A model generated the notes under the pieces. That model was not told where the DNA came from, made no database searches, and saw only the letters and a list, made by a program, of their open reading frames with translations. Shown one piece after another: positions 6,930 to 55,482 of a DNA stretch of 64,000 nucleotides; the first letter of the stretch is position 1, and the number at the start of each line of letters is the position of its first letter. The stretch is from an uncultured Actinomycetes bacterium (lineage in GTDB: Bacteria; Actinomycetota; Thermoleophilia; UBA2241), in contig CAVXRL010000008.1 of NCBI GenBank assembly GCA_963764225.1, positions 255,304 to 319,303 of the forward strand. The letters are read 5' to 3'. The position numbers were made by a program, and so were the translations under genes.

Positions 6930-7034
6930 CTCTCGCGGCGGCCCGGCCCGCCGCAGGTGTCCGTCCGAACACGCCGGACACCACCGTGCAGCTCACACGG
7001 GGAACAGTACTGGAATGCTAGACTCGAGCGCAGC

Positions 7035-8738: not shown

Positions 8739-8819
8739 AAGTTAAGCAAACTTCAGGGTAGACTGTGCGCGGCGCGACGCGCGGTCGCGCACACGACAAC
8801 GTACTCTGGGGGGGTCCGT

Positions 8820-10244
8820 ATGACGGAGATGCTTCGCAACGAGGGATTGAAGCGCGTACGGATGCGGCTGATCACCGCAGTCGTGTTCGTGTTCACCCTG
8901 ACGTGCTCGGGATCGTTCGGTATGGAGGACGTGGTCTCGTCTTCCGGCCCGGGACTCACGCTGATCATGATCCTCGTGCTTCCGCTGATCTGGAGTGTGC
9001 CGCTCGCCTTCGTCTCCTCGGAGCTTTCGGCGATGATCCCGGAGGCCGGCGGCCTGTACCGCTGGATCCGCCGCGGCATGGGCGAGTACTGGAGCTTCCA
9101 GGCGGGCTGGTGGTGGACGCTTTCGCTCTACGTCGACTCCGCCGTGTACGTCGCCATGGCCCTCGACTACATGCAGAACCAGTGGGGGTTCGGCGCCGCC
9201 GAGCGAGCCGCGATCGGCATCGCCATCGTCGCGGTCTTCACGTTCATCAACATCAGGGGCCTCGACCTCACGGGATGGGCGCTCATCGTCATCCAGGTCG
9301 TGGTCCTGGTGCCGCTCCTCATCTTCACCGTCTATGGGGTGTTCAAGGGGGCGGGCAACTCCTTCTCGCCGGTCATCGCGCCGGGTGAGAGCGTGCTCAC
9401 CTCGCTCAACCTGGGACTCGCGATCATGATGTGGATGTACTCCGGCTGGGAGTCCATCGGCACGCTCGCCGGCGAGATCGAAGAGCCGCAGCGCGTCATC
9501 CCGCGGGCCCTGCTCATCACCACCCCCATCGTCATCTTCGTGTACATCGTCACGGTGTGGGCCTCCATCCGCATCGCGCGCGTGGACGGCCCGGACAACT
9601 GGATGAACATGTGGACCGGCGGCGGCGGGGTGGACTTCGTCCAGGCGGCCAAGCTGGTCGGCGGCAACGTCCTGCTCTACCTGGTGCTGGTCTCCGCCAT
9701 CTTCTCGAACATCGGCCTGTTCGCCGGCTACCTGGCCACCGGCGCCCGGCCGGCGTTCCAGATGGCGCGCGACCGCCTGTTCCCGCGGTTCATCGGCCGG
9801 ACGCACCAGAGCTGGGGCACGCCGTGGGTCTCGATCCTCATCATGGGCATCATCGACGGCGTGCTGATCAACTTCAATTTCAGCGCGCTCATCACCATCG
9901 ACGTGTTCCTGCTCATGTTCCCGTACGTGCTCATCTACCTGACCGCGATGATCCTGCGCATCAAGGAGCCCGACGCGCCCCGGCCGTTCCGCGTGCCGCT
10001 GCCCACCTGGGCGCTGGGGGTGTGGGTCTTCTTCCCGATCGCGATCGCCATCCTCGCCCTGTTCGTCAACGGTACCGACTGGATGATCGGCGGTCTTGCC
10101 GCGGTGCTCACCGGGCCGATCGCCTACCTCATCTTCAAGAGCTTCTACAAGGGCACCACGGACGAGGCGCTCGAGGGGTCGACGATCACGCCTGAGGGCG
10201 AGCTCACCGCCTTCGGCGCCGAGATCGAGGGGAGGATGGCATGA
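8820..10244 (+). CDS. APC-family amino acid permease
   Basis: 474-aa polytopic membrane protein with an APC-like N-terminal region (SELSAMIPEAGGLYRW). Confidence 0.7.
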   Translation: MTEMLRNEGLKRVRMRLITAVVFVFTLTCSGSFGMEDVVSSSGPGLTLIMILVLPLIWSVPLAFVSSELSAMIPEAGGLYRWIRRGMGEYWSFQAGWWWTLSLYVDSAVYVAMALDYMQNQWGFGAAERAAIGIAIVAVFTFINIRGLDLTGWALIVIQVVVLVPLLIFTVYGVFKGAGNSFSPVIAPGESVLTSLNLGLAIMMWMYSGWESIGTLAGEIEEPQRVIPRALLITTPIVIFVYIVTVWASIRIARVDGPDNWMNMWTGGGGVDFVQAAKLVGGNVLLYLVLVSAIFSNIGLFAGYLATGARPAFQMARDRLFPRFIGRTHQSWGTPWVSILIMGIIDGVLINFNFSALITIDVFLLMFPYVLIYLTAMILRIKEPDAPRPFRVPLPTWALGVWVFFPIAIAILALFVNGTDWMIGGLAAVLTGPIAYLIFKSFYKGTTDEALEGSTITPEGELTAFGAEIEGRMA

Positions 10245-10711
10245 GCAGCCGGACCGCTGCGCGCATCGCCGCCGTCGTCGGCATCCTCGCTGGCCTCACC
10301 GCGATCGGCGGCGGCCTCTACGCGCACTTCCAGAGCCCGCAGCCGGTGTTCGGCATCCCGGGCTTCCTGTTCGTGTACAGCGACTACCTCTCCGGCGTGC
10401 ACCAGCTCGTGGGACTCGGCGTCATCATGGTCATCGGCGGCCTGCTGGCCTTCAAGTGGCCGGCGCTGGGCGTCAGCATCGTCTGCGCCGGCGCCATGTT
10501 CGGCCTCATCGCCACCTACGACAAGGGCCGGCCGCCGTTCATGGGCGACGAGCTCCGCACACGCTGGATGCCGTACTTCTACTACTGGGCGGCGCCGTGG
10601 GTGCTCGCCTGGATCTCCGGCATCTTCGGCGGCCTCTCGCTGCAGAAGTCGGTCAAGCAGTACGACTACGCCGCCGACATCGACAACGTGCGCACGCCGC
10701 AGGCGAGCTGA
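10241..10711 (+). CDS. small integral membrane protein (4 predicted TM helices), function unknown
   Basis: ATGA-coupled to the permease. Hydrophobic segments and GC3-biased codons. Confidence 0.5.
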   Translation: MSSRTAARIAAVVGILAGLTAIGGGLYAHFQSPQPVFGIPGFLFVYSDYLSGVHQLVGLGVIMVIGGLLAFKWPALGVSIVCAGAMFGLIATYDKGRPPFMGDELRTRWMPYFYYWAAPWVLAWISGIFGGLSLQKSVKQYDYAADIDNVRTPQAS

Positions 10712-10770
10712 GCGCGGGGCGCCGGCGACGGGGGCGGGACTGCCTGCGGCGGTCCCGCCCCCGTCGCGTA
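10712..10770. terminator. GC-rich nested palindrome between convergent genes (bidirectional terminator candidate)
   Basis: GCGCGGGGCGCCGGCGACGGGGGCGGGAC-tgcctgcggcg-GTCCCGCCCCCGTCGCGTACGCGCCCCGCGC. No U-tract, as is usual for actinobacterial terminators. Confidence 0.45.
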
Positions 10771-10819
10771 CGCGCCCCGCGCGGCTGCGCCCGGTCTCTC
10801 CGCTCCGGGCAGCCGCGGG

Positions 10820-11257
10820 TCAGGTCTCGAGCAGGATCGTCACCGGGCCGTCGTTGACCAGCTCGACCTGCATGTGCGCGCCGAACACGCCGGTCTCGAC
10901 CGGCACGCCTTCGGCGCGCAGCGCGCGGACGTAGGCCTCGTACACGGCGGCGCCGCGCCCCGGCGGGGCGGCGCCGGTGAAGCTCGGCCGGTTGCCGCGC
11001 CGCGTGTCGGCGTACAGCGTGAACTGGGAGACGGCGAGCACGGCGCCGCCGACGTCACCCAGCGCCAGGTTCATGAGCCCGGCGCCGTCGGCGAACACGC
11101 GCAGCCGCGCCGTCTTGGCGGCGAGCTTGCGGGCCGCGGCCTCGTCGTCCTCGTGGCCGACGCCCACGAGGGCGAGGAACCCGTGGCCCACCGCGCCGCG
11201 CTCCACGCCGTCCACGCTGACGGCGGCGCGGCTCACGCGCTGCAGCACCACCCTCAC
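10820..11257 (-). CDS. dtd: D-aminoacyl-tRNA deacylase
   Basis: [11 protein letters not shown]...SQFTLYAD...GNRPSF motifs, 145 aa. Confidence 0.85.
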
Positions 11258-11445
11258 GAGGCGCCGTCCCTGTCCCTGTTCATCGCTGCATTCTAGTCGC
11301 GTGCACTCCCGCCGGCTACTGACGGCGGCACTCGCGTGCCTGGGCTGATAACCTGCTGCCGGCCGCGAATGAGCCGAAAAAGACCTGCAAAAAGGTCACC
11401 TCCTTCTCCTCCGCTCCCGACGAGCGCGGCTTTTGCCTCACTGGT

Positions 11446-11474
11446 TTGACATGACCCGGTAGCGGCCATACCAT
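11446..11474 (+). promoter_or_regulatory. sigma-70-like promoter for groES (TTGACA-17 nt-TACCAT)
   Basis: Perfect -35 hexamer with a 17-nt spacer and a -10-like TACCAT, lying directly upstream of CIRCE. Confidence 0.4.
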
Positions 11475-11489
11475 AGCGAGCTGCGTGGA

Positions 11490-11516
11490 TTAGCACTCTC
11501 TCCCCGAGAGTGCCAG
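11490..11516 (+). promoter_or_regulatory. CIRCE element (HrcA operator) upstream of groES
   Basis: TTAGCACTC-N9-GAGTGCCAG against the consensus TTAGCACTC-N9-GAGTGCTAA: left arm perfect, right arm 7/9. Confidence 0.7.
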
Positions 11517-11565
11517 ATTCAAGTCCGAGAGAAACCACGGTGTACACACCAAGGAGGGTTGCTGC

Positions 11566-11862
11566 ATGAAGCTCAAGCCGCTCGAAGACCGCGTGATCAT
11601 CAAGGCGGTCCAGGAAGAGGAGAAGACCGCCAGCGGCATCGTTCTCCCCGACACGGCCAAAGAGAAGCCGATGATCGGTGAGGTCGTGGCTGCGGGCGAC
11701 GGCAAGTGGGACGAGGCCGGCAAGAGCCGTATTCCCATGGACGTCAAGAAGGGCGACAAGGTCATCTACGGTAAGTACGCGGGCACCGAGTACAAGACCA
11801 CCGATGGTGACGAACTGCTGATTCTGCGCGCCAGTGAGATCCTGGCCGTAGTCGCAAAATAA
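11566..11862 (+). CDS. groES: co-chaperonin GroES
   Basis: [13 protein letters not shown]...[12 protein letters not shown] sequence, with an AAGGAGGG RBS. Confidence 0.95.
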
Positions 11863-11875
11863 GAGGGGAGGCTGA

Positions 11876-13516
<1,641 letters not shown>

Positions 13517-14833: not shown

Positions 14834-16277
14834 GTGGAGACGTGCAAGATCCTGATCGGCGGCGACTGGGTAGCGGCAAGCGACCACGCCACCTTCGAGA
14901 CGAGGTCCCCGGCCGACCCGGCTGAAGTCCTCGCGGTGTTCCCGTCGGCGACCGCCGCCGACGCGGCGCAGGCGGCCGCCGCCGCCGCCGAGGCGTTCCC
15001 GGCCTGGCGGGCGACGCCGGCGCCGGCCCGCGGCGCCATCCTCTTCAAGGCGGCCGAACTGCTCACCGAGCGCCTGGACGAGGTCGCGCGCACGCTCACG
15101 CGGGAGGAGGGCAAGACGCTCGCCGAGGCCACCGGCGAGGTGCTCCGCGCGCGCGACATCCTCCGGTACTTCGCCGGCGAGGGCTGGCGGATGGGCGGCG
15201 ACGTCCTGCCGCCCAACGCGCCGGACGCGATGCTCTTCAGCCGCCGCGAGCCGCTCGGAGTGGTCGCCGCCATCACCCCGTGGAACTTCCCGATCGCCAT
15301 CCCGGCCTGGAAGCTGGCTCCGGCGCTCGTCTACGGCAACACCGTGGTCTTCAAGCCCGCATCGGACACGCCGCTCACCGCCCTTCGCCTGGTCGAGTGC
15401 CTCGTGGAGGCGGGCCTGCCCGACGGGGTGCTCAACTTCGTCACCGGCTCGGGAGCGGTCGTGGGAGGCGGCGTTCGCCGGCGATCCCGTGGTGCAGGGC
15501 CTCACCTTCACCGGGTCACGAGCCACCGGCTCGGACATCTACCCGCGCGCGGCCGGCCACGCCGCGCGCGTGCAGCTCGAGATGGGCGGCAAGAACCCCA
15601 CGATCGTCCTCGACGACGCCGACGTCGGCCTGGCCGTCAAGCTGGCCGTCCAGGGCGGCTTCGCGCTCACCGGCCAGAGTTGCACCGCCACCAGCCGCGT
15701 GATCGTCGAGGAGGGCATCGCCGACCGCTTCGCCGCCGCGCTGGCCGAGGCCGCCAACGCCCTCAACGTGGGCGACGGCCTCGACCAGGGGGTGCAGATG
15801 GGCCCCGCCGTGAGCGCGGCCCAGCTGGCCACCGACCTGGACTACGTGCGCGTCGGCGAGGAGGAGGGCGCGGACCTGCTGGCCGGAGGCGCCCGGGCCG
15901 GCGAGCGCGGCCACTACCTGCGCCCCACGGTGTTCGACGGCGTAGAGGTGCACAGCCGGCTCGCGCAGGAGGAGATCTTCGGGCCGCTGATCGGGATCAT
16001 CCGCGCCGCCGACGTCGACGACGCGATCTTCAAGGCCAACGCCGTCGGCTACGGGCTCGCGGCGAGCGTCGTGACCAACGACCTGCGCCGCGCGCTCACG
16101 TTCGTCGACCGTATCGAGGCCGGCGTCGTCAAGGTCAACGAGCCGACCACGGGCCTCGCGCTGCAGGCGCCCTTCGGCGGCTTCAAGCAGTCGAGCGCCA
16201 ACACCTTCAAGGAGCAGGGCCCGTCCGCGGTCGACTTCTACACGCGCACCAAGACGGTCTACATCAGCTACGGTTGA
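14834..16277 (+). pseudogene. NAD(P)-dependent aldehyde dehydrogenase, interrupted by a -1 frameshift near 15465 (G-run)
   Basis: N-terminal part reads in the frame of ORF 14834 (…ITPWNFP…VLNFVTGSGAVVG). C-terminal part reads in the frame of ORF 15489 (EAAFAGDPVVQGLTFTGS…EMGGKNP…SCTATSR…EEIFGPL). The two frames meet at gtgggaggcg. Confidence 0.7.
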
Positions 16278-16345: not shown

Positions 16346-16585
16346 ATGGCCGCCGACCCGGCACAAGGCAAGCACATCCTGTTCGTCACAGGTCCTCAGC
16401 GCGAGGCGCTCTACGAGCACTTCTCCGCGCTGTTCCTCGGACGGGACGACGTGGAGGTCCGGATGGACCGCCGCGTCGCCGAGCGCCGGCGCTCGGCGCG
16501 GTCGCCGGTCGCCGGCGAGCGCCGCCGGCAGGAGCGCCGCCGGCGGCCGCCGGAGTGGATCGTCCCGCCCGGCGGCGGCATCTGA
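16346..16585 (+). CDS. hypothetical small protein with poly-Arg C-terminus
   Basis: 79-aa ORF with GC3-biased codons in an otherwise non-coding gap upstream of the methyltransferase operon. No recognisable domain. Confidence 0.3.
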   Translation: MAADPAQGKHILFVTGPQREALYEHFSALFLGRDDVEVRMDRRVAERRRSARSPVAGERRRQERRRRPPEWIVPPGGGI

Positions 16586-17549: not shown

Positions 17550-18662
17550 GTGAGCGCGCCTGAGCGCTGCCGCCTGCGCGACCTCGGAGTCGCCGTCGGC
17601 ACGCTGCCGGCCGGGCCGCTCAACGCCATCACCGACGTGCCGGGCGTGCGCGTCGGTCACTGCACGGTCTCGTGGGGCGGGCCCGATCTGCCGCAGGGCA
17701 GCGGGCCCGCCCGCACGGGAGTCACAGCCCTCTTCCCGCACGACGGCGACCTGTGGAACGGCCGCGTCGTCGCCGGCGCCCACGCCGCCAACGGGGTGGG
17801 CGAGCTCATCGGCATCAGCGCCATCCGGGAGTGGGGCCTCATCGAGACCCCCATCCTGCTCACCAACTCCCAGAGCGCCGGCGCCGTCTACGACGCCACG
17901 GTCCGCTGGCTCCTTGAGCGCAACCCTCGGGCGGGCATCGACGACGCCGTCATGCCCGTGGTGGGCGAGTGCGACGACGGGTCCCTCAACGACCTGCGCG
18001 GCATGCACGTGCAGCCGGAGCACGTGTGGGCCGCTCTCGAGTCTGCCGCGCCCGGTCCCGTGGAAGAGGGCTGCGTCGGGGCCGGCACCGGCATGTCGTG
18101 CTACGAGTTCAAGGCGGGCATCGGCACCTCGTCCCGCCTCGTCACCGCTCACGGCCGGCAGTACACCGTGGGCGTGCTGGCGCTGGCCAACTTCGGCGTG
18201 CGCCACCGCCTGCTGGTGGACGGCGTGCCGGTCGGGCGTGAGATCACGGACCTCCTGCCGGTGGAGGACCGCGAGGGCTCGTGCATCGTGGTGCTGGCCA
18301 CCGACGCTCCGCTCAGCGCGCGCCAGTGCGCGCGCATGGCCAGGCGCTGCTCGCTCGGGCTGGCGGCGACCGGCTCCTACGCCTCGGACGGCAGCGGCGA
18401 GATCATGGTGGCGTTCTCCACGGCCGCGCGCGTCCCGCGCGCTTCGGCGGAGCCGCTCGTGCTGACCACGGTGGGCAACGACCAGATGTACGGACTCTTC
18501 GAGGCCGCGGTGGACGCAACGGCCGAGAGCGTGTGCAACTCGCTCACGGCCGCGACCACCACGGTCGGGCGCGCCGGCAACACGGTCCACGCGCTGCCGC
18601 TGGACCGCCTCGTGGAGGCGCTGCGGCGCGCCGGCCGCCAGGCGCAGCTGCCCGGAGCCTGA
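17550..18662 (+). CDS. P1-family peptidase (DmpA/L-aminopeptidase D-Ala-esterase/amidase-like, S58)
   Basis: GVRVGHCT, LLTNSQSAGAVYDA and GAGTGMSCYEFKAGIGTSSR motifs. GTG start 11 nt after the previous stop. Confidence 0.75.
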   Translation: MSAPERCRLRDLGVAVGTLPAGPLNAITDVPGVRVGHCTVSWGGPDLPQGSGPARTGVTALFPHDGDLWNGRVVAGAHAANGVGELIGISAIREWGLIETPILLTNSQSAGAVYDATVRWLLERNPRAGIDDAVMPVVGECDDGSLNDLRGMHVQPEHVWAALESAAPGPVEEGCVGAGTGMSCYEFKAGIGTSSRLVTAHGRQYTVGVLALANFGVRHRLLVDGVPVGREITDLLPVEDREGSCIVVLATDAPLSARQCARMARRCSLGLAATGSYASDGSGEIMVAFSTAARVPRASAEPLVLTTVGNDQMYGLFEAAVDATAESVCNSLTAATTTVGRAGNTVHALPLDRLVEALRRAGRQAQLPGA

Positions 18663-18928
18663 GCCGCCACGAGCGTGCGAGCCCGCCCGCCCCGAGTCTG
18701 AGCCGCGCGGCGAGCGCTGCTCCGGGCTCGGACGCGCCTTGCCGCGTCAGGCCTTGCCGCATATCCTGACCCTCTCATCGACGGAACCGGGGGCGGCCAC
18801 CGTCTAACCACCCGAGGCTCTCTCCGGAGACGTCCGCCGGCGGCGCCGCCGCCGGCGACATCAGGGGTCCGGCAACCACGGATGCGAGAAGGGGGTAAGG
18901 GTCCGCGAGACGCCCGTCCCGGGCGCCG

Positions 18929-19912
18929 GTGACCCGCCATGCTGTGGACAAACGCAGGTACTTCATTCGCAAGGTGCTGAACGCGGTGCTCACGATCGTC
19001 CTCGTGGCCTCGTTCAACTTCGCGCTCTTCCGCATCCTCCCGGGCGACCCTGCCCGGCTGCTCCTGCCCAAGGGCAAGACCGACCCGTCGGTCATCGAGA
19101 AGCAGCGCAAGGTGTTCAACCTCGACAAGCCGATGTGGCAGCAGTTCATCTTCTACTGGCGCGACACCGTCAAGGGCGAGTTCGGCATGTCGTTCGCCGA
19201 GAAGCGCCCCGTGACCGAGGTCGTCGCCGAGCGTATCTGGCCCACCGTCCTGCTCGTGGGGGTGGGCACTGTCTTCGCCACCGTCATCGGCATGATCACC
19301 GGGGTGTTCGCGGGGTGGAGACGCAACGGCACCTACGACGTCGTCACTACCAACTTAGGGATGATCCTGTACGCCATGCCGACCTTCTGGTTCGGCCTCC
19401 TGATGATCATGTTGTTCGCCACCAAGCTCCGCTGGTTCCCCACGGGGCGCATGGAGGAGCCCGGCGTGGAGCTGAGCGGCTTCGCGGCGTTCCAGTCGCT
19501 GGCGAAGCACCTGTTCCTGCCGGCGTTCACCTTCGCCATCGCCTACGTGGGTGAGTACCACCTCATCATGCGGAGCTCCATCACCGGGGTGATGAAGGAG
19601 GACTTCACGCTCACGGCCCGCGCCAAGGGCCTCAGCGAGAACTCCGTCCTCTGGAAGCACGTCGTGCCCAACGCCATGTTGCCGACGGTCACCATCGTCA
19701 TGATGAACCTCGGCTTCGTGATGTCCGGCGCCATCCTCGCCGAGAGCGTGTTCAACTGGCCGGGGCTGGGGCTGCTGTCCTACGACTCGATGCAGAAGCG
19801 CGACTATCCGGTCATGCAGGCGGTGTTCCTCATCGCCAGCATCGCCGTGATCGTCGCCAACCTCATCGCCGACATCATGTACTACTACCTCGACCCGCGG
19901 GTGCAGGCATGA
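18929..19912 (+). CDS. ABC transporter permease (DppB/OppB family)
   Basis: FRILPGDPAR and the EAA-loop region, six TM helices. Confidence 0.8.
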   Translation: MTRHAVDKRRYFIRKVLNAVLTIVLVASFNFALFRILPGDPARLLLPKGKTDPSVIEKQRKVFNLDKPMWQQFIFYWRDTVKGEFGMSFAEKRPVTEVVAERIWPTVLLVGVGTVFATVIGMITGVFAGWRRNGTYDVVTTNLGMILYAMPTFWFGLLMIMLFATKLRWFPTGRMEEPGVELSGFAAFQSLAKHLFLPAFTFAIAYVGEYHLIMRSSITGVMKEDFTLTARAKGLSENSVLWKHVVPNAMLPTVTIVMMNLGFVMSGAILAESVFNWPGLGLLSYDSMQKRDYPVMQAVFLIASIAVIVANLIADIMYYYLDPRVQA

Positions 19913-21506
19913 GTACCCTGGTGAGTCAAGACATCGAGCGGGGCACCGGCGGCGCGCCCGTCAGCACCTCCGTCCCCCGCAGGTTCCGGAACTGGGTCAT
20001 CTTCTGGACCATCATCATCTGGTGCGTCCTCGAGTTGCTCACGTACCCGAAGGACGTGCCGATCTCGAGCGGCCTCGCGGCCATCTTCAAGGGGTTCTTC
20101 TCCGAGAGCGTCGGCGCGTATCCCGCCTGGCTCATGGTCCTGCTGGCGATCGCCTGCCTCGCCGCCGGCGTCATCGGCCTGGTGCGCAGGGCCAAGGCCA
20201 GGACCCTCAACATCCTGCTCGTGGTCGAGGGCCTCGTGTTCCTCGCGTGGGCCGTGCTGGCCGGCGGCGGGTTCGGCGGCTGGTCCGCCGTCGCCAACGA
20301 GATCAGCTACAACTGGGTCTTGCAGACGGTCGCCGTCGTGCTCGCCGGCGCCTGCGCGTGGGCCTGGGCCGCCGGCAACCCCGAGCGCGCCGAGCTCACC
20401 ACCTGGAACACGCACCAGGTGTGGAAGCTCTACCGCAGCAACTGGCAGGGCATGGTCGGCCTCGGCATCCTCGTCGTGTTCATCGCCATTGCGCTCTTCG
20501 CGCCGTTCCTCGCCGACCACGCGCTGCTCGACCCGAATGCGCAGATCGCGGATCCGGCCACGGGAGAGCTCTACCTCGCCTACCACCCGCCCACCTGGTA
20601 CTACTACAACTGGTTCGGGACCGACCAGGTGGGGCAGAGCGTGCTCGCCCAGTTCATCTGGAGCGCGCGCATCTCGCTCATGGTCGGGCTGCTCGCCGCC
20701 TTCATGTCCACCGTCCTCGGCGCCGGCATCGGCATCGCCGCCGGCTTCTACGGAGGGTGGCAGGGCGAAGGCTGGATGCGGTTAACAGACGCGTTCCTGG
20801 TCATCCCGTGGCTGCCCCTGGCCATGGTCCTCGCGGCAGCCTGGGGCCAGAACTACTGGATGATCATCCTCATCATCGGCATCACCAGCTGGCCGGGCAC
20901 CGCTCGCGTCATCCGCTCGGACACGCTGCGCGTGCGCGAGCTGAGCTTCATCGAACGCGCCAAGGCCATCGGCTCCAAGAACGGCCACATCATGGGCAAG
21001 CACGTGCTGCCCAACGTGATGCCGCTCATCTTCGCCAACCTCGTGCTCGTGGTCGCCATCGCGATCCTCTCCGAGACGACCCTGTCGTTCCTCGGTCTCG
21101 GCGACCCGCTCAACTTCAGCTGGGGCACCATGCTGCACTACGCCTGGGTCAACGGCGCCGCCGGCCTGCCCGCGTGGTGGTACCTGCTGCCGCCGGGCAT
21201 CGCCATCATCCTGGTCGTGCTGGCCTTCACGTTCATCGGCACGGCCTACGACGAGGTGCTCGATCCCAAGCTGCGCAAGCGCGAGGAGAGCACCGGCGAG
21301 AGCCGCTTCAGCGCTCGCGGCGAGCCGGCCGTGGCCGTCGCCGGCGGCGCCGGCGTCGGCGGAGGCGCCGGCGTGTTCACGCCGGGCGTCCAGACCGACG
21401 ACGCCATGCCCGACTTCAACAAGCCGGCCGGTGGCACCATCGGCGACTCACGTGGCGGCGGCTGGGCCAGCGGCCGCATCCAGGACGACGAGGAAGGAGG
21501 CGAGTG

Positions 21507-21507
<1 letters not shown>
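19909..21507 (+). CDS. ABC transporter permease (DppC/OppC family) with a ~170-aa extra N-terminal membrane domain and a Gly/Ala-rich C-terminal tail
   Basis: Core OppC region (SWPGTARVIRSDTLRVRELSFIERAKAIG) is preceded by 3-4 additional hydrophobic helices and followed by ...AVAVAGGAGVGGGAGV...DDEEGGE. ATGA overlap with the upstream permease. Confidence 0.8.
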
Positions 21508-23628
<2,121 letters not shown>

Positions 23629-23701
23629 TCGTGAGGCCGGCCGGGGCGGTGCGCCGCGAAGCGCATCACCGCCCCGGCCGGCCCGCGTGTGGAGCATACG
23701 G

Positions 23702-25544
23702 ATGAGCCGGGACACGAGACGCAGCGACGCCGCGGCAGGGTACCTGCCGGCCACAGCGAGCCTGCTCTTCGCCGCGCTGCTCACGCTCCTGCTCGCGGCG
23801 CCGCTCCCGGCCGCCGCGGCGGCGTCCGCGCCGGCCGCCGCCGGCACGCCGGCCCCGCTCGAGTACAGCATCGGCACCGCCCAGGACTGTGACGGGCTCA
23901 ACCCGTTCCGCTCCTGGAGCTCGGTCTCCTGGGAGTGCTTCCGTCTCGGCTACGACTTCCTCACCTGGTACGACGCCGACTACCGCCCCGTGCCGGACAT
24001 CGCCGCCTCCTGGGAGGTCTCGGAGGACGGTCTCACCTGGACGTTCCACCTGCGCGAGGGCATGGAGTGGCAGGACGGCGTGCCGCTCACGGCGGCGGAC
24101 GTGGTCTTCACGTACGACCTCGTGCTCACCACGCAGCAGCCGGCCTACGTGCAGTACCTCAGCGGCGTCACCGAGGTGCGCGCGCCGGACGAGACGACCG
24201 TGGTCGTCGTCACGCGGCGCCCCAAGGCCGACATGCTGGCCATCGCCATCCCCATCCTGCCCGGAGCACATCTGGAAGAAGGTGGACCCCGACCGCCTGG
24301 CCGACTTCGAGAACCTGCCGTTCGTCGGGTCGGGGCCGTTCCGCGTCACCGGCCTGGAGGAGGGCAAGGAGGTGACGCTCGAGCCCAATCCCGCCTATCC
24401 GCCGGCGCTGGGCGGGGCTCCGGCGCTGACGCGGCTCACGTTCGTCGTGGGCCGCGACGCGTCCTCGCTGCTCGAGGAGTACAGGGCCGGGCAGCTCGAC
24501 GCCGTGGCCGACTTCCCGGCCACCCTGCAGCCGGCCTACGCCGAGGTGACGGGCACGACCACGGTCGCGGCGCCGGCCGTGGGGTTCCACGAGCTGGGCT
24601 TCAACTGCTGGCAGAGCCCACGGAGCAAGGGCGACCCGCTGCTGCGCGACGCCTCCGTCCGCCGGGCCGTGCACTGGGCCATCGACAAGGACAAGATCGT
24701 CGCCTCGGCCATGGCCGGACTCGCCGAGCCCGGCGCGTCGGTGGTCTCGCCGGCCCAGGGGGACTGGCACTGGGAGGCGCCGGACGACGCGTCGTACCGC
24801 TACGACCCCCGGCGCGCCAAGCAGATCCTGGAGGACGCCGGCTACGCCGACCGCGACGCCGACGGCATCCGCGAGGACGCCGCGGGGCACAAGCTCTCGT
24901 TCCGTCTCACCGCGCTCACCGAGTACCCGGCGGACCAGGAGGCGGCGCGGATGATCGTCCGCTGGTGCCGGGACGTGGGCATCGACCTGCGCCTCGAGGT
25001 CGTCGACGAGGCGGAGTTCAGCGACCGCATCTACGACGACGCCGACTACGACCTGTTCGTCTGGAGCTGGGGCGGCGACATCGATCCGAGCTTCATCCTC
25101 AGCACGTTCACCACGCGCCAGATCATGAGCTGGAGCGACAGCCAGTACTCCGACCCGGTGTACGACCGCCTGTACACGCTGCAGGCGCAGGCGGTCGACC
25201 CCGCTCACCCCGAGGACACGGCCCACCGCAAGGACCTGGTCGACGCCATGCAGAAGCTGCTGTACCGCGACGACCCGTACATCGTGCTCTGGTACAACGT
25301 GAACCTGCAGGCGTTCCGCGCGGACCGCTGGGCCGGGTACGTCATGGCGCCCGCCGGAGACGGGGCGCCGTTCTGGAACCAGCTGCGCTCCAGCTACATC
25401 TCGTTGCGCCCGGTGCGCGCCGCACAGCCCGCCGTGGAGGCGTCCAGGGCCTGGGTGTGGGGCCTGGTGGCGGGCGCCGTCGCCCTGGCCGCCGTCGGCC
25501 TCGCCGTGCTCAGGCGACGGCCACGCAGCACTGAGGATGTGTGA
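23702..25544 (+). pseudogene. ABC substrate-binding protein, family 5 (peptide/nickel type), with a +1 frameshift at ~24263; has a signal peptide and a C-terminal TM anchor
   Basis: Frame of ORF 23687 through ...AIAIPILP, then frame of ORF 23889 from EHIWKKVDPDRLADFENLPFVGSGPF. C-terminal WVWGLVAGAVALAAVGLAVLRRRPR is a predicted TM helix. Confidence 0.7.
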
Positions 25545-25584: not shown

Positions 25585-27057
25585 ATGACCGAGCTCGGCG
25601 CACTCTGGCCCGACGAAGCGATCGAGGCCATCCACCTCGCGGCCCTCACGCTCCTTGAGCGCGCCGGGGTGAGGGTGGAGTCTTCCGTCGCGCGCGAGCT
25701 GTTCCTCGCCGGTGGCTGTGAGGCCGCGGGCGAGCGGGTGGCGATCCCGCGAGCGGTGGTCGACGAGGCGCTGGCGAGCTGCCCGCGCGAGTACCTGCTC
25801 GCCGCGCGCGACCCGGAGCGGTCACTCGCCATGGGCCCCGACCCGGCGCAGACCTACGTCCACAACATGGGGGGCGCCCGCGACGTCAGCGACCCCCGCA
25901 CCGGGGCCGGCCGGCGCGCGACGCTCCACGACCAGGTGCTGGCGACGCGGGTCATGCACCAGCTGCACAACCAGCGGCAGATCACGTCGCTCTGGCAGCC
26001 GCAGGACGTGCCCGACCTGCTGGAGCCGCTGTACTCGTACCTGGTGCTCGCCCACGAGACCGACAAGGCCATCGGGGGGCCGGGCATCTCCCACCCCTTC
26101 CAGGCGCTCTACCTCCAGCAGATGGCGGTCGCCGTCACCGGCGCCGACGGGAGTGACGGCACCTACCCCGTGGACCTCGCGTTCTCGCCGGTCAGCCCGC
26201 TCATCCTGGGCGGCGACGTCTCGGACGCGCTCGTGGAGCAGGTGCGGCGCGGCGGCGCGGCGGTGGAGATCCTCCCGTGCCCCGCCGCCGCGACCACCGC
26301 GCCCGGCTCGCTCTCGGCGGCGCTCGCGCAGCAGCACGCCGAGGTGCTGGCCGGCGTCGTGCTCACGCAGACGGCGGCGCCGGGCACGCCCGTGTACTAC
26401 GGGCCGCGGCTCAGCGCCGTGGACCCGCGCAGCGGGGTGGTCGTGAGCGGCACGCCGGAGACCGGCGTCGGCTCCGTGGCCGCGGTCTTGCTGGCGCGCC
26501 GCTGCGGCCTGGCCTGCGACTGCTACGGGCCGTGCAGCGACAGCAAGGTCATGGACACGCAGTTCGGCTACGAGCGCGCGGTCAACGCGCTGCTCGGGCT
26601 CGCGGCGCGGCCGCGCCTGCTCAGCGGCATCGGCGAGATCCAGGCCGGGGTCGCCAGCTGCCTGGAGGTGCTGGTCGTCGACGACGAGGTGCTCAACAAC
26701 GCGCTGTACGCGCTCACGCCTCGCCCCTGGGACCAGGACGCGCTGGACATCGAGGCGATGGTGGACGGGGTGCTCTCCGGACGGGGGTTCCTGGGCACCA
26801 AGCACACGCGCCGCTACATCCGCTCCGACTTCGTGAGCCCGCTGCTCAGCTACCGCGGCGGGCTCGGCGACTGGCTCTCGGCCGGCCGCGCCGGGCTCGT
26901 CGACCTGGCCTCGGACAAGGTCGCGGAGCTGGTCGACCGCGAGCCGGTCGGGCTGCCGGACGACGTGCTGGACGAGCTCGTCCGGCTCATCGACCGGTGC
27001 GCCGCGGAGATCGGCGTGACGGGGCATCCCGACCCCCGCCGGGCCCTCGGGCTGTAG
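25585..27057 (+). CDS. MttB-superfamily methyltransferase, non-pyrrolysine type (glycine-betaine/quaternary-amine:corrinoid methyltransferase-like, MtgB/MtpB/MtcB group)
   Basis: EAIEAIHLAALTLLERAGVRVES...ELF...G...V.IPRAVVDEALASCPREYLLAARDPE aligns with the MtgB N-terminal region. 490 aa with no in-frame TAG. GGAGGGG RBS. Confidence 0.8.
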   Translation: MTELGALWPDEAIEAIHLAALTLLERAGVRVESSVARELFLAGGCEAAGERVAIPRAVVDEALASCPREYLLAARDPERSLAMGPDPAQTYVHNMGGARDVSDPRTGAGRRATLHDQVLATRVMHQLHNQRQITSLWQPQDVPDLLEPLYSYLVLAHETDKAIGGPGISHPFQALYLQQMAVAVTGADGSDGTYPVDLAFSPVSPLILGGDVSDALVEQVRRGGAAVEILPCPAAATTAPGSLSAALAQQHAEVLAGVVLTQTAAPGTPVYYGPRLSAVDPRSGVVVSGTPETGVGSVAAVLLARRCGLACDCYGPCSDSKVMDTQFGYERAVNALLGLAARPRLLSGIGEIQAGVASCLEVLVVDDEVLNNALYALTPRPWDQDALDIEAMVDGVLSGRGFLGTKHTRRYIRSDFVSPLLSYRGGLGDWLSAGRAGLVDLASDKVAELVDREPVGLPDDVLDELVRLIDRCAAEIGVTGHPDPRRALGL

Positions 27058-27064
27058 ACGCGTG

Positions 27065-28220
27065 ATGGCGATGGTCCGGTCCTCCTCCGACGGCCCGCAC
27101 GATGATCCGGCTTCGCCGATCATTCCATTCGTCCACGTCCAGGCGAGGGGCAGCTACCGCGAGCTCGGCCGCGCGGTCGGCGAGTCCGCGCGCGACCAGG
27201 TGCTGGCGTCGGTCGCCTTCTTCCGCGACAACTTCCCCGCGCTCACCGGCGGCCGGCTGACGTTCGCCGAGGCCGAGCGGCGCGCGCCGGCGTTCGCCGA
27301 GCACGCGCGCCGCCGGCTGCCGCAGTACGTGGCCGAGCTCGAGGGGCTCGCGGAGGGCTCCGGCGTGCCGTTCTCGCAGCTGCTCGTGCTCAATTGCGGC
27401 GAGGAGTTCACGGCCGACGAACCCCACGCGCCGGCGGAGGGGCGCTCGCCACACTCCGGCGACCACTGCACGGCAGTCGCGGTCGCCATGGACGGCCGTC
27501 ACGTCGTCGGTCACAACATGGACTGGTACGTCATCGACGCCGTCAACAACGTGCTCTTCGACCTCACGGTCCCGGACGGCACCCGCGTCATGGGCCTGGC
27601 CGGCGCGCCGTACCTGCTCATGCTCGGCATGAACAGCCACGGCGTGGGCAACGTCAGCAACTCCGTCCACTCCACGGACAACCGGGTGGGCGTGCCCAAC
27701 GTGTTCGTGCGCCGGTCGACGCTCGAGGCGCGGACCCTGGAAGAGGCGCGCGACCGCGGGCTCCTGGCCGACCGCGCCCGCGGCACCAACCAGTTCTTCG
27801 CGGACACCGAGCGGGCGGCTCTGGGACGTCGAGACCTCGGCCACCGCGCACGCGCACGCCGACCACACGGCGGCGGGCTTCATGGCCCACACCAACCACT
27901 ACGTCTCTCCCGAGATGCAACCGTACGAGGGCTACGGCGGCGGGGAGTCCGAAGTCCGTCTCTCGACCGCCGAACGCCTGCTGGCCGAGGGTCTCGCCGC
28001 GGGCGGCGACCCGGTGGACCTCGTCGCCCGCGTGCTGCGCACGCACGAGCCGTCACCCGAGGAGGCCATCTGCGGTCATCCGCTGCCGGGCACGTCTCCC
28101 GCCGATCAAGGCATGACCGTGGGCAGCATCATCTGCGACCTCGACGAGCGGCGCATGTACGCCTGCGCGGGACCGCCGTGCGAGAACGCGTACCAGGTGT
28201 TCGAGATGGGGGAGACGTGA
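27065..28220 (+). pseudogene. C45-family NTN hydrolase / acyl-CoA:6-aminopenicillanic-acid acyltransferase-like, with a +1 frameshift at ~27810-27820
   Basis: GDHCTAVAV N-terminal-nucleophile Cys context. Frame of ORF 27062 through ...GTNQFFADTE, then frame of ORF 27882 (LWDVETSATAHAHADHTAAGFMAHTNHYVSPEMQ...). Confidence 0.65.
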
Positions 28221-28238: not shown

Positions 28239-29867
28239 GTGGCCGGCGGGCGCGTCGTCGACGGCTGCGGCAACCCGTGGTTCCGCGGCGACGTCGCCGT
28301 CTCCGGCGACCGCATCGCCGCGATCGGCGCGCCGGGCACGCTGCGCGGGCGGCGCGTCGTCGACGCCGGCGACCGCTACGTCACGCCGGGGTTCATCGAC
28401 CCGCACACCCACTCGGACCTCACCATCCTCCTGCACCCGCGGGCCGAGACGGCGGTGCGCCAGGGCGTGACCACCCACGTCACCGGCAACTGCGGCATGT
28501 CGGCCGCGCCGCTCACCGAACAGCACAGGGTCGACGCGGTGCACAACTGGGCGCACTACGCGTGGGGTCTGGAGCGCGTGGCCTGGGACTGGCGCACGTT
28601 CGGCCAGTACCTGGCGGCCGTCCGCCGCGAGGGCCACGCGATCAACATCGCGCCCCTCGTCGGCCACGGCGCGCTGCGCCTCGCCGTGGCCGGCTTCGCC
28701 GAGCGCGCGGTCACCGAGCGCGAACTGGCGCGCATGGAGCGCCTGCTGGACGCGAGCCTGCGCGCCGGCGCGCACGGCATGTCCAGCGGGCTCGTCTACC
28801 CGCCCGGCTGCTTCGCGACCACCGAGGAGCTCCTGCGGCTCTGCCGCGTGGTCGCCCGCCACCACGGCATCTACACCTCGCACGTGCGCGGCGAGCGCGA
28901 GACGATCCTGCAGGCCGTGGCCGAGGCGCTCGAGCTGGGGCGCGCGGCGGGGTGCCCGGTGGAGGTGTCGCACAACGCGCCCAAATGGGGCGCGCCGGAG
29001 GACGCCGAGGCCAACCTCGAGCTCATCGAGGAGGCGCGCCGCGGCGGCCTGGACGCGACCACCGACAACGACGTGCACACCGACCTCGCGCCGCGCCTCT
29101 CGCGGGCGCTGCCGCAGCCGGTGCTCGACCTCGACCACGACGCGCTCATCCGTCTGCTCTCGGACCGCGAGGCGCGCGAGGCCCTGCACCGGGAGGTGCT
29201 GGAGGACACCCTGCCCGGCGCCGGCTATGCGGGCCTGGTGCGGCACGGCCGCTTCGACCGCATCGTGGTGTTCCACGCCGGCCGCCACCCGGGGCTGCGC
29301 GGCCGCTCGATCGCCGACGTCGCCGCGGAGCGCGGCGCCGACCCGTGGGACACCTTCCTCGACCTCATCGTCGAGGAGGACGACGACATCGTCGGGCTCT
29401 TCGACTACATCGAAGAGCGGAACATCCGCGCCCTGCTGCGGAGCCCGATCGCCATGGTCTCCTCGGACGGGCTCGTCATGCAGCCGGCCGAGGAGCTCGA
29501 CGACGCCTCCGTGTACTGGCCGTGCAGCTACGGTGAGTACCCGGGCGTGCTCGAGCGCTACGTGCGCGAGGAGCCGGTGCTGCGCCTCGAGGAGGCGGTG
29601 CGCAAGATGACCTCCTTCCCGGCGCAGCGCTTCGGCCTGTCCGACCGCGGCGTGCTGCGCCCGGGCCTCAAGGCGGACCTCGTCGTCCTCGACCTCGAGC
29701 GCGTGCGCGACCGCGCCACGAACCTGTTCCCGCACGCGTTCCCGTTCGAGAACATCCCGCACGCCTCGCCGGAGGGCATCGACCTCGTGCTCGTCAACGG
29801 GACGCCGGTGCTCGACGAAGGCGAGATCACCGGCGAGCTGCCGGGCCGCGTGCTCAAGCGCTCCTGA
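28239..29867 (+). CDS. N-acyl-D-amino-acid deacylase (D-aminoacylase), amidohydrolase superfamily
   Basis: GRVVDGCGNPWFRGDVAVSGDRIAAIG, GFIDPHTHSD and HVRGE motifs. GTG start at 28239 slightly truncates the usual N-terminus; a rare CTG at 28233 is an alternative. Confidence 0.75.
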   Translation: MAGGRVVDGCGNPWFRGDVAVSGDRIAAIGAPGTLRGRRVVDAGDRYVTPGFIDPHTHSDLTILLHPRAETAVRQGVTTHVTGNCGMSAAPLTEQHRVDAVHNWAHYAWGLERVAWDWRTFGQYLAAVRREGHAINIAPLVGHGALRLAVAGFAERAVTERELARMERLLDASLRAGAHGMSSGLVYPPGCFATTEELLRLCRVVARHHGIYTSHVRGERETILQAVAEALELGRAAGCPVEVSHNAPKWGAPEDAEANLELIEEARRGGLDATTDNDVHTDLAPRLSRALPQPVLDLDHDALIRLLSDREAREALHREVLEDTLPGAGYAGLVRHGRFDRIVVFHAGRHPGLRGRSIADVAAERGADPWDTFLDLIVEEDDDIVGLFDYIEERNIRALLRSPIAMVSSDGLVMQPAEELDDASVYWPCSYGEYPGVLERYVREEPVLRLEEAVRKMTSFPAQRFGLSDRGVLRPGLKADLVVLDLERVRDRATNLFPHAFPFENIPHASPEGIDLVLVNGTPVLDEGEITGELPGRVLKRS

Positions 29868-32416: not shown

Positions 32417-33424
32417 GCCGGCTCTCCCAGGTGCTCGTACAGCACGCCGGCGATCTCCGCGATGGCCGCGGACGCCTGCGCCTTGGCCTCGCAGCCCAGG
32501 CCTTTCAAGTAGACGACCATGACCATAGGTGCCCCCCCGGGAGTGTAGACGATCGCGGCGTCGTTGCTCGTGCCGCTCACGCCGCCGGTCTTGTTGGCCA
32601 CGAGGGTCCCGTCCGGCAACCCTGCGGGGATCTTCTCCCGCCACTCCTGGCGCGCCAGCACCTCCACCATCAGACGGCAGGAGGGCGCCGAGGCGCAGCG
32701 GTTCTGGGCGATCATCGCCAGCAGCTCGGCCATGTCGCGAGGGGACCCCCTGTTGTCGAGCGCCTGGTCCACGGCGAACGAGTCCTCGTACGTCGAGCGA
32801 CTCGTCGCGTCCCCAGCGGCGCTCGTACAGGTGCAGGAACTCCGCGCCGCTCAGCCGCGCGTTCTCCTCGAGCACGCGGCGGAACGCCTCCTCGCGCGCG
32901 CCGCGCTCCTCGAGCTCCCGCCAGCGGGCCACGGTCTGCGGCCCGCCCAGGCCGGCCCACTCCTCGCCGGCCCCGCACCCGATGAGGAAGTACTCGCGGT
33001 TGGGCATGGAGCAGTCGATCGTCTCGAGGCCGAGGCGGCGCATCGTCTCGTTGACGGAGGCGAGGCCCACCAGCCTCCAGAGCATGTCGGTGGCCGTGTT
33101 GTCGCTCAGCGTGATCATGAGGTAGAGCAGGTCACGCACGCTCGGCCGCAAGCCCTCGTGGCAGTGGATCAGCGTGCTGCCCGGGCTCTTGTCCCCCTCG
33201 GTGAGCGTGAGGCGGTCGTCGAGGCGCAACACGCCCGCGTCGACCTGGCGCAGCAGCTCGACCATCACCGGGATCTTGAAGCAGCTCGCCATGGGGAAGA
33301 GCTCGTCCGCGTTGACGTACACCTCGGCGCTGCTCGCCAGGTTGCGCGCGGCCACCCCCACGGCGCCTCCGAGCGGCGCGGCGATGGCCGCGACGTTCTC
33401 GTGGACGCCCCTCTCCGTCTGCAC
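32413..33424 (-). pseudogene. class A beta-lactamase-like serine hydrolase without signal peptide, with a -1 frameshift at ~32780-32795
   Basis: SCFK (SxxK), SDN and ANKTGG (KTG) motifs are split between the frame of ORF 31679..34786 (N-terminal part) and ORF 32413..32772 (C-terminal part). GTG start with a GGGAGGGAG RBS. Confidence 0.6.
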
Positions 33425-44625: not shown

Positions 44626-45465
44626 ATGCCGGCCGCGCCGACCTTCGCGCTCGAGCTGCAGTTCCCGGCGGTCATGGGGATCGTCAACGTCACGCCCGAC
44701 TCGTTCTCGGACGGCGGGCAGTTCTTCGCCGCCGACGCCGCCCTGGAGCAGGCCCTCACGCTGGTGCGTGAGGGCGCCGCGGTCATCGACATCGGCGGCG
44801 AGTCCACGCGGCCGGGCTCCGAGCTGGTCACCCTGGACGAGGAGCTGCGCCGCGTGCTGCCGGTGGTCGAGGCGCTCGCCGGCAGCGTCGGGGTCCCCAT
44901 CTCCGTCGACACGATGAAGGCCGAGGTCGCCCGGCGCGCGCTCGCGTCCGGCGCGACCATGCTGAACGACGTGAGCGCGTTCCGCTACGACGAGGAGATG
45001 GTGGACGTGGTGGCCGAGTCCGGCGCGCCGGTCTGCCTCATGCACATGCAGGGCATGCCCAAGACCATGCAGGAGGACCCCCGGTACGACGACGTGGTGG
45101 ACGAGGTCCTCGCGTTCCTCGAGGCGCGCCTGGCGTTCGCGCTGGCCCGCGGCGTGCGCGAGGAGCAGGTCATGATCGACCCCGGCATCGGGTTCGGCAA
45201 GACCGTGGCGCACAACCTGGCGCTGCTCGACGGTCTGCACCGGTTCACCGCGCTCGGCCGTCCCGTCCTGCTCGGCGCCTCCCGCAAGCGGTTCCTCGGG
45301 GCGATCCTGGGCGCGGAGCCGTCCGGCCGCGCCACCGGGACGGTGGCGACCACCGTCATCGGCTACCTCGCCGGGGCGCACATCTTCCGCGTCCACGACG
45401 TCAAACCCAACTTTGAGGCGCTGCGCGTAGCCCTCGCGGTGCGCGAGGGCGTCGTCGCCCCCTGA
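44626..45465 (+). CDS. folP: dihydropteroate synthase
   Basis: GIVNVTPDSFSDGG and DIGGESTRPG motifs. Confidence 0.9.
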   Translation: MPAAPTFALELQFPAVMGIVNVTPDSFSDGGQFFAADAALEQALTLVREGAAVIDIGGESTRPGSELVTLDEELRRVLPVVEALAGSVGVPISVDTMKAEVARRALASGATMLNDVSAFRYDEEMVDVVAESGAPVCLMHMQGMPKTMQEDPRYDDVVDEVLAFLEARLAFALARGVREEQVMIDPGIGFGKTVAHNLALLDGLHRFTALGRPVLLGASRKRFLGAILGAEPSGRATGTVATTVIGYLAGAHIFRVHDVKPNFEALRVALAVREGVVAP

Positions 45466-45484
45466 TCGGCAAGGAGACCGCACC

Positions 45485-45851
45485 ATGACGCGAAGCCTGT
45501 CCATCGTCCTCAACGGCATCGAGCTGCGCGGGCGCTGCGGCGTCACCGCCCAGGAGCGGGCCATCGGCCAGACGCTCTCCATCGACGTGCGCCTCGATCC
45601 GCAGCCGCGCGGCGCCGGCCAGAGCGACGAGCTCGAGGACACCGTCAACTACAGCCAGATCGTCAACTACGTGCGCGGCGTGGTGGAGGGCGGCGAGTTC
45701 AAGTTGCTCGAGCGGCTCGCCACCGTGCTCTGCGACGGCCTCTGGGACGAGTTCGACCCAGTGACTCGTCGAGGTGGCCGTCAGCAAGATCGCGCCGCCC
45801 GTGGCGCTGCCCGTGCACGCGGCGCGCGTCGAGGTGGTACGCACCTCTTGA
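45485..45851 (+). pseudogene. folB: dihydroneopterin aldolase, with a +1 frameshift near 45765-45775
   Basis: N-terminal part (GIELRGRCGVTAQERAIGQTLSIDV) in the frame of ORF 45485. The sensible C-terminus (...EVAVSKIAPPVALPVHAARVEVVRTS*) is in another frame and ends with a TGA that overlaps the folK TTG. Confidence 0.6.
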
Positions 45852-55472: not shown

Positions 55473-55482
55473 GAAGGCAGCC

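Follow-up and report, generated by a model that had tools for sequence, protein, structure and literature searches.

In Eubacterium limosum, the genes for MtqC, for MtqA and RamQ, and for the substrate:corrinoid methyltransferases (MT1) MtpB, MtcB and MtyB are located in separate clusters, and the authors of that study reasoned that, owing to the separation, many substrate-specific MT1 enzymes can share a single carrier (PMC8604678). A shared carrier has also been documented in Ruegeria pomeroyi. There, the genes for MtgC, for MtgD and for the MtgB paralogues are scattered over separate loci, a split methionine synthase draws on the same MtgC, one MtgC has been proposed to suffice for as many as seven open reading frames (ORFs) of the family PF06253 per genome, and MtgD takes part in methionine synthesis as well as in the demethylation of betaine (PMC12478193). 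Because this layout is documented in both organisms, the lack of a corrinoid protein gene beside an MT1 gene should not in itself be considered surprising. In this study, we examine such a case, the MttB-like gene at positions 25585 to 27057 (+ strand) of a 64,000-nucleotide stretch of contig CAVXRL010000008.1 (assembly GCA_963764225.1), which belongs to a metagenome-assembled genome (MAG) of the Thermoleophilia; the whole stretch is called the window below. The initial annotation of the window had remarked on the missing corrinoid gene on the premise that such genes are usually adjacent, a premise that is too strong because MtpB, MtcB and MtyB of E. limosum (PMC8604678) and MtgB of R. pomeroyi (PMC12478193) are unlinked from their carriers.

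We consider the MttB-like gene to be part of a catabolic cluster that is conserved in its lineage. On balance, the MT1 and the methyl-corrinoid:tetrahydrofolate methyltransferase (MT2) of this cluster probably feed a corrinoid protein that is encoded elsewhere in the genome, and the cluster would then form one substrate-specific "spoke". The two methyltransferase genes on which this reading turns are as follows.

25585..27057, + strand: MttB-superfamily methyltransferase, putative MT1 (substrate:corrinoid), of the type without pyrrolysine (non-Pyl), 490 aa; PF06253
16735..17538, + strand: pterin-binding methyltransferase, putative MT2 (methyl-corrinoid:tetrahydrofolate), 267 aa; PF00809, NF005719

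The MttB-like ORF starts with an ATG after the sequence GGAGGGG, runs for 490 codons without an internal stop and ends with TAG. Its product matches PF06253 (MTTB) over profile positions 33-500 of 500 with an E value of 9.9e-67 and a score of 225.5 bits (cut-off 25). With phmmer, it matched the solved chains 9yce, 2qne, 7xcl and 4yyc, with E values of 1.7e-44 for Desulfitobacterium hafniense MtgB (9yce/2qne) and 1.4e-42 for Methanosarcina barkeri MttB (7xcl) and alignments of about 420 residues, from which the TIM-barrel fold of MtgB and MttB can be predicted. The score against the equivalog model TIGR02369 is 246.4 bits, under the 525-bit cut-off, and Cys317 aligns with Pyl334 of MttB (7xcl). 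Because of this score and the cysteine at the pyrrolysine position, we assign the protein, on sequence grounds, to the non-Pyl members of the superfamily and not to the trimethylamine methyltransferases. The initial annotation had likewise called the gene an MttB homolog and, for want of an internal TAG, a non-Pyl one, and both calls agree with these results. The putative MT2 scores 288 bits against NF005719, over the cut-off of 259 bits, and its best solved relatives, both aligned over their full length, are MeTr/AcsE (2e7f, 8.8e-47) and D. hafniense MtgA (4o0q, 2.6e-45). It is thus of the type of a methyl-tetrahydrofolate (methyl-THF) partner, as had been proposed, and both genes had been placed at the right coordinates.

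The window contains no gene for a protein with a B12-binding domain. When nearly all of its coding-like segments were scanned with Pfam, no match to PF02310, PF02607 or the CFeSP-type families was returned. Because genes of the window are frameshifted, a six-frame search was also run: the B12 domain of Escherichia coli MetH found nothing among the stop-to-stop ORFs of at least 50 aa in the window, while the same query recovered, as positive controls, the two corrinoid proteins of a metagenome contig that carries distant MttB homologues (L081) at E values of 2e-32 and 3e-25. A hidden Markov model built from three B12 seeds found only these two proteins in 1.4 Mb of six-frame ORFs from the window and 80 loci. 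Matches to the regular expression DxHxxG...SxL...GG in the window lay in junk frames only and were discarded. Moreover, no cobalamin, THF or other riboswitch was found, at the gathering threshold over the whole window and at E<=1 over 13.4-31.8 kb. With the controls recovered, the earlier statement that the window holds no such gene stands.

A scan of a genome collection returned 72 related loci, mostly from Thermoleophilia MAGs of soil, peat, lake and digester origin and some from Chloroflexota, with MttB-like proteins that are 73-91% and 62-68% identical, respectively, to that of the window. Thirty-six of the Thermoleophilia loci, mostly from separate species-representative genomes, have at least 9 kb of upstream flank and are informative about gene order. 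The MT2 gene is in the cluster in all 36, and a corrinoid gene lies within 10 kb in none of them. The peptidase S58 gene, the four Dpp transporter genes and the C45 hydrolase gene are kept in 35 of the 36, the PucR regulator gene in 34, the amidohydrolase gene in 33 and the binding-protein gene in 29. In one locus (L042), the permeases, ATPases and hydrolases have been lost, and MT2, the binding protein and MttB remain side by side. The Chloroflexota orthologues stand alone, beside a major facilitator superfamily transporter or unrelated genes, with no adjacent MT2. No family of unassigned ORFs recurs in more than five of the related loci, which indicates that there is no hidden conserved partner. 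The comparison with close relatives that had been called for therefore bears out the initial observation, and we found no report of this specific cluster in the literature.

Single MAGs were found to hold both the main cluster and a paralogue of 52-53% identity at another locus (L009 with L068, L013 with L070, and L064 with L065). In L068 and L070 (~7000-12450), the paralogue is flanked at one end by genes for a family-5 binding protein and an ornithine cyclodeaminase/mu-crystallin and at the other by a gene for an M24 (prolidase/creatinase-like) peptidase, and these neighbours suggest that it acts on another amino-acid-derived substrate. Neither an MT2 nor a corrinoid gene lies near the 52-53% paralogues. 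As in a hub-and-spoke layout, these genomes thus have more than one PF06253 paralogue, each at a locus of its own that lacks a corrinoid gene. A further arrangement was observed in L011 and L017, where an extra binding-protein gene and a 53% MttB paralogue are inserted between the amidohydrolase and PucR genes.

According to the structure paper on MtgB (2026), Y97, F356, H348 and R312 bind glycine betaine, and R312 is kept in all characterised members, which all act on acidic quaternary amines (PMC13080624). In our alignment, all four positions are replaced in the window protein (Met95, Asp312, Ser347 and Gly355 for Y97, R312, H348 and F356), and Asp312, Ser347 and Gly355 are invariant in its clade. 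The protein therefore lacks the residues of the acidic quaternary-amine type (MtgB/MtpB/MtcB/MtyB/MthB) and has instead the signature Asp312-x-Tyr314 / Ser347 / Gly355. Among the 113 nearest full-length cluster representatives, position 312 is Asp in 48, Asn in 12 and Arg in 8, and Tyr is found at position 314 in 55. From these counts, we place the window protein, within the MttB superfamily, in a large [D/N]-x-Y branch for which we found no characterised member. A zinc site made of Cys311, Cys313 and Cys359 was also considered; these residues border the pocket and do not vary within the close clade, and the idea was dropped because homologues of 30-50% identity have not retained them.

Most of the sampled distant members of the same signature class adjoin Opp/Dpp-type transporters and peptidases (M14 in L075 and L076, M20 in L078, and C45/AAT, DUF2817 and M20 in L080), and the association of the class with peptide and D-amino-acid genes recurs across phyla. 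In L077 (8607-11398, Anaerolineae), there is an overlap between the same-class MttB gene and the stop codon of a folC-like gene (Mur_ligase_M/FOL3_C), which hints at a folate link even without a nearby MT2. The contig L081 (5108-14833) encodes a PocR/AraC regulator, two B12-binding_2/B12-binding proteins, three MttB homologues, an M19 dipeptidase and an alanine racemase. All three of these homologues carry the [D/N]312-x-Y314 / S347 / G(A)355 signature and are directly beside the corrinoid proteins. Therefore, the [D/N]-x-Y class can be corrinoid-linked, and L081 is a candidate for a complete system of this class. We also put forward, tentatively and with more doubt than confidence, that the [D/N]312-x-Y314/S347/G355 branch is a distinct class that demethylates, without pyrrolysine, a methylated amine of peptide or amino-acid origin other than the acidic quaternary amines; one equally tentative example of its substrate would be an N-methyl (D-)amino acid freed by the co-encoded S58, C45, D-aminoacylase, M14, M19 or M20 enzymes. 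In a bolder form of this proposal, the enzyme may work without a dedicated corrinoid protein. The active-site class, the strict linkage to MT2 and the recurrent embedding in peptide transport and hydrolysis genes are what is new here.

The other genes of the cluster, with its conserved upstream neighbours, are the following.

14834..16277, + strand: aldehyde dehydrogenase (ALDH; 2,5-dioxovalerate / KGSA dehydrogenase-like), conserved upstream neighbour, split by a frameshift; PF00171 in two frames
16346..16585, + strand: small conserved Arg-rich ORF, 79 aa, between ALDH and MT2; conserved in tblastn
17550..18662, + strand: peptidase S58 (DmpA/BapA-type D-aminopeptidase or beta-aminopeptidase); PF03576, E 3.9e-114
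18929..19912, + strand: Dpp/Opp-type ABC permease, DppB-like; PF00528, PF19300 and NCBIfam Opp/Nik/Gsi permease models
19909..21507, + strand: Dpp/Opp-type ABC permease, DppC-like; PF00528 and PF12911, both from residue 169
21507..22560, + strand: ABC ATPase, DppD-like, 3' end and dppF junction broken by at least one frameshift; PF00005, PF08352
22564..23628, + strand: ABC ATPase, DppF-like; PF00005, PF08352 and NF008453 (351 bits)
23687..25544, + strand: family-5 solute-binding protein, split by a frameshift; PF00496
27062..28220, + strand: C45-family autoproteolytic acyltransferase/hydrolase (AAT-like), split by a frameshift at ~27809; PF03417 in two frames
28239..29867, + strand: Amidohydrolase_3, D-aminoacylase-like; PF07969
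29923..31608, + strand: PucR-family transcriptional regulator, probable start 29968; PF07905, PF17853, PF13556

On the + strand, the order is thus GroES, GroEL, PHP phosphatase, ALDH, the Arg-rich ORF, MT2, S58, DppB, DppC, DppD and DppF, followed by the binding protein, the MttB-like gene, the C45 hydrolase, the amidohydrolase and PucR. The hydrolases are supported by their own relatives or by those of their orthologues in L001, a related locus with intact genes: the S58 orthologue matches the D-aminopeptidase 2drh (2.5e-94), DmpA (1b65) and BapA (3n2w), the intact C45 orthologue scores 175 bits against NF040521 (cut-off 85), and the amidohydrolase matches D-aminoacylase (1m7j, 3.4e-72) and N-acyl-D-glutamate deacylase (3gip, 3.9e-64). 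The intact ALDH orthologue reaches 608 bits against NF052305, under the cut-off of 750. An N-terminal extension of ~165 aa in the DppC-like permease (19909-20400) has no domain match, and its length is kept in relatives (513 aa for the protein in L001). The Arg-rich ORF, which is kept at the same position in most Thermoleophilia loci according to tblastn (a 74-aa gene in L001), has a structured N-terminal half and a disordered Arg-rich tail (DRRVAERRRS...ERRRQERRRR). It was considered as an unconventional corrinoid binder and rejected, given its 79 aa, its tail and the absence of any Pfam or NCBIfam match, which agrees with the first impression that this ORF does not bind a corrinoid.

All genes of the cluster are co-oriented. 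It is plausible that the MT2 and MttB-like genes belong to one operon, as had been stated of them; the co-orientation is confirmed, but a single operon is not established, given the gap of ~230-690 nt between S58 and dppB that is conserved in every locus. In a scan for promoters and terminators, the counts were not above those of shuffled controls. At ~18895-18945 (alignment A2), a conserved Shine-Dalgarno-like sequence, GAAGGAGG, lies ~55 nt upstream of the dppB start and is followed by a hairpin. The stem of the hairpin co-varies across 25 loci (GGGTCC/GGACCC, GGGCTCGC/GCGAGCCC), with a weak RNAalifold support of -2.3 kcal/mol. Translational control could be its function, or the folding could move the Shine-Dalgarno sequence nearer to the start codon.

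At least six genes of the window are frameshifted, and the MT1 and MT2 genes are both intact. Relative to orthologues with unbroken frames, the reading frame is disrupted at 15445-15471 in the ALDH gene, at 22490-22570 at the dppD/dppF junction, at 24207-24283 in the binding-protein gene, at 27808-27810 in the C45 hydrolase gene and at 32789-32790 in a beta-lactamase gene; tilS is apparently frameshifted too (~40435). Accordingly, PF00496 matches the binding protein with its positions 2-95 in one frame and 101-363 in another, and the tblastn alignment of dppD with the intact L001 orthologue ends at residue 310 of 341, with the C-terminal motif resuming in another frame. Split matches are found mainly in loci of the MAGs named "MFD", while most loci of short-read MAGs give single matches. 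Because the orthologues are intact in other MAGs and the fragmentation is concentrated in the MFD loci, whose assemblies we take to be long-read, the frameshifts look like long-read assembly indels and not like gene decay.

Since the GC content of the window is ~70%, third-position GC was used to tell genes from spurious ORFs. Downstream of PucR are a short-chain dehydrogenase/reductase and the class A beta-lactamase (both on the minus strand), followed by genes for alanine dehydrogenase and aldehyde:ferredoxin oxidoreductase. What remains of the window consists of housekeeping genes (tsaEBD, panC, tilS, hpt, ftsH, folE, folP, a FolB-like ORF, folK, nadBC, coaX, dus, greA, lysS, clpC and radA) and one MMPL gene. 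GroEL (11912-13513), the FolB-like ORF (45446-45784), ClpC (59865-62330), RadA (62555-63481) and three prepilin-like ORFs at 53.7-57.3 kb were assigned by eye, without Pfam. Together with folE, folP and folK, which were identified by family scan, the FolB-like ORF is consistent with a de novo supply of folate. The prepilin-like ORFs are consecutive and lie in a segment (53700-57287) in which the GC content is lower (~61-63%) and the usual third-position signal is absent; two of them have prepilin-type N-termini (GFTLVELLITIVLAG... and GLTLVELLVVMTIG...), and the segment probably carries genes for a pilus or pseudopilus and has a different compositional origin. As to the host, Thermoleophilia of the order UBA2241 live in anoxic habitats, and some of them encode the corrinoid protein HgcA (PMC7438021); one related locus (L028) comes from a MAG named UBA2241. 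In addition, Actinobacteriota in Stordalen Mire express methylotrophy genes of the corrinoid type (PMC10805028). Because of these reports and the aldehyde:ferredoxin oxidoreductase in the window, the host is probably an anaerobe, and the description of the MttB-like gene as the non-Pyl type of aerobic bacteria should be abandoned. The observation of the initial annotation thus holds, and its interpretation holds in part: the families, the non-Pyl type and the lack of a linked corrinoid gene were confirmed, the carrier at another locus that it listed first is also the explanation that we favour, and three of its premises had to be corrected.

In the reading that we favour, the Dpp-type ABC importer would take in a small peptide-like or amide-linked compound, which the S58 peptidase, the C45 Ntn-hydrolase and the D-aminoacylase-like amidohydrolase would then process. 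The MttB-like MT1 would take a methyl group from the freed methylated amine and load it onto Co(I) in a corrinoid protein, and the MeTr/MtgA-like MT2 would hand it to THF, with PucR as the presumed regulator of the cluster. The corrinoid protein and its reductive activase would be encoded elsewhere and would probably be common to the other MttB paralogues of the genome, in a hub-and-spoke arrangement. The families, the conserved order of the genes and the lack of a B12-domain gene in the window and in 72 related loci are observed; the methyl transfer, its dependence on a corrinoid, a carrier gene at another locus and the nature of the substrate are predicted. Several observations support this reading. 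The full-length relatives of the MT2, MeTr/AcsE and MtgA, have only corrinoid proteins as known partners; MT1 and MT2 occur together in every informative locus, including the stripped-down L042; and the same-class homologues of L081 adjoin two B12-binding proteins. A paralogue with neither MT2 nor corrinoid gene in the same MAG is as expected if several MT1 enzymes feed one carrier. Moreover, E. limosum (PMC8604678) and R. pomeroyi (PMC12478193) provide precedents, the lineage UBA2241 is anoxic with HgcA in some members (PMC7438021), and the window contains folate genes.

Other points weigh against a carrier at another locus. The 64-kb window showed no corrinoid protein, activase or cobalamin riboswitch, and neither did the sequence within 10 kb of the MttB gene in the 72 related loci from two phyla; these are the sequences that the searches covered, and the location of the carrier is to that extent a deduction. 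The MT2 of the published hub-and-spoke systems does not travel with the MT1, unlike that of the window cluster, and the L081 homologues share an identity of only 28-30% with the window protein. Furthermore, the four substrate residues of MtgB are all replaced, including the Arg of every characterised quaternary-amine member (PMC13080624), so that the methyl-donor chemistry is extrapolated from ~30% identity only. The lack of a nearby corrinoid gene might simply reflect a gene of the window that was missed through a frameshift or an assembly error, as the number of frameshifted genes could suggest. We regard this explanation as having a negligible probability, since the six-frame search was negative while its positive controls scored, relatives with intact genes (e.g., L001) show the same gene list and nothing extra, and the unassigned ORF families recur in at most five loci; the initial annotation had named such a hidden gene as a finding that would overturn its view, and none appeared.

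If there is no dedicated carrier at all, MT1 and MT2 might exchange the methyl group via a free or loosely bound cobamide, for which the linkage of the two genes without a corrinoid protein in 36 of 36 loci could be cited, as could the in vitro methylation of free cob(I)alamin by D. hafniense MtgB (PMC13080624) and E. limosum MtcB (PMC8604678). However, this activity is an in vitro surrogate that is not general, because MtyB cannot methylate free cobalamin (PMC8604678); the use of free cobalamin that had been suggested for the window system is therefore correct as a description of MtgB in vitro and does not extend to the whole family. The reconstituted physiological systems all need a corrinoid protein and an activase, and with two corrinoid proteins adjoining the same-class homologues of L081, a free cobamide appears quite improbable to us. 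The position of the L081 genes among B12-binding proteins also argues against a corrinoid-independent or otherwise different chemistry, either a direct methyl transfer to THF or another reaction on a peptide-derived compound. This alternative draws on the replacement of all four MtgB substrate residues, on the class member that overlaps folC and on the Chloroflexota and Thermoleophilia class members, which mostly lack a nearby corrinoid or MT2 gene and have peptide transporters and peptidases instead. Nevertheless, the full-length match to PF06253, the ~420-residue alignment to MtgB and MttB and the strict linkage to a MeTr/MtgA-type MT2 make it unlikely, and a corrinoid-independent member of the superfamily is not described in the literature examined. 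The MT2 might, finally, act as a methyl-THF:corrinoid module with a housekeeping role, for example in a split methionine synthase or in the acetyl-CoA pathway, and not as the partner of MttB, as is suggested by the conserved gap that separates MT2-S58 from dppB onward, by the Chloroflexota orthologues and Thermoleophilia paralogues without an adjacent MT2, and by the double role of MtgD in R. pomeroyi (PMC12478193). Such a module would not exclude a carrier at another locus, and a shared or dual role would still leave the MT2 as a partner; with the co-occurrence in 36 of 36 loci and the retention of MT2 beside the binding protein and MttB in L042, we see little likelihood that it serves housekeeping instead. 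A methyltransferase pair that feeds a carrier encoded elsewhere is the reading that we retain.

Metagenomes of soil, peat and sediment are rich in non-Pyl MttB homologues, which are routinely scored as quaternary-amine or trimethylamine demethylases. The clade of the window protein has none of the residues that are known to bind these substrates and is found amid peptide uptake and hydrolysis genes in at least 36 Thermoleophilia loci, and the neighbours of its Chloroflexota relatives are similar. If the class acts on a new kind of methylated nitrogen compound, such annotations would over-call glycine betaine or trimethylamine metabolism in wetlands and would miss a route from peptide-derived methyl groups into the C1 metabolism of folate. 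Necromass or peptide turnover would then be tied to C1/folate metabolism in anaerobic Thermoleophilia and Chloroflexota.

The known systems resemble the window cluster to different degrees. MttB/MttC of Methanosarcina belongs to the same Pfam family, with an alignment that spans residues 177-481, whereas the gene of the window has neither an in-frame UAG nor a pyrrolysine, scores below the cut-off of TIGR02369 and has no adjacent MttC. MtgB-MtgC-MtgA of D. hafniense (DSY3156-3155-3157) provides the best solved relatives of both window methyltransferases, with the same predicted roles, but its corrinoid gene is adjacent, and its Y97, R312, H348 and F356 correspond to M, D, S and G in the window. 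MtgB/MtgC/MtgD of R. pomeroyi has a PF06253 MT1 that is encoded apart from the corrinoid protein and one carrier that is proposed for several MT1 enzymes; it differs in that the host is an aerobic proteobacterium, the substrate is glycine betaine and the MT2 gene is beside metF2, whereas MT1 and MT2 are linked in the window and the pocket is different. E. limosum is likewise an anaerobe with several non-Pyl MT1 paralogues unlinked from the corrinoid protein, MtqC, and a pterin-binding MT2, MtqA, that transfers to THF. Its MT2 gene is with RamQ and methyl-THF oxidation genes, in contrast to the position beside the MT1 cluster here, and its MT1 enzymes keep Arg312 and act on acidic quaternary amines, in contrast to the Asp312, the peptide transport and hydrolysis neighbours and the ~30% identity of the window protein. 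L081 differs from the window in its adjacent corrinoid proteins, its GC content of 54% and its identity of 28-30% to the window protein, but it shares with the window both the [D/N]-x-Y / S / G(A) signature and the company of peptidase and D-amino-acid genes.

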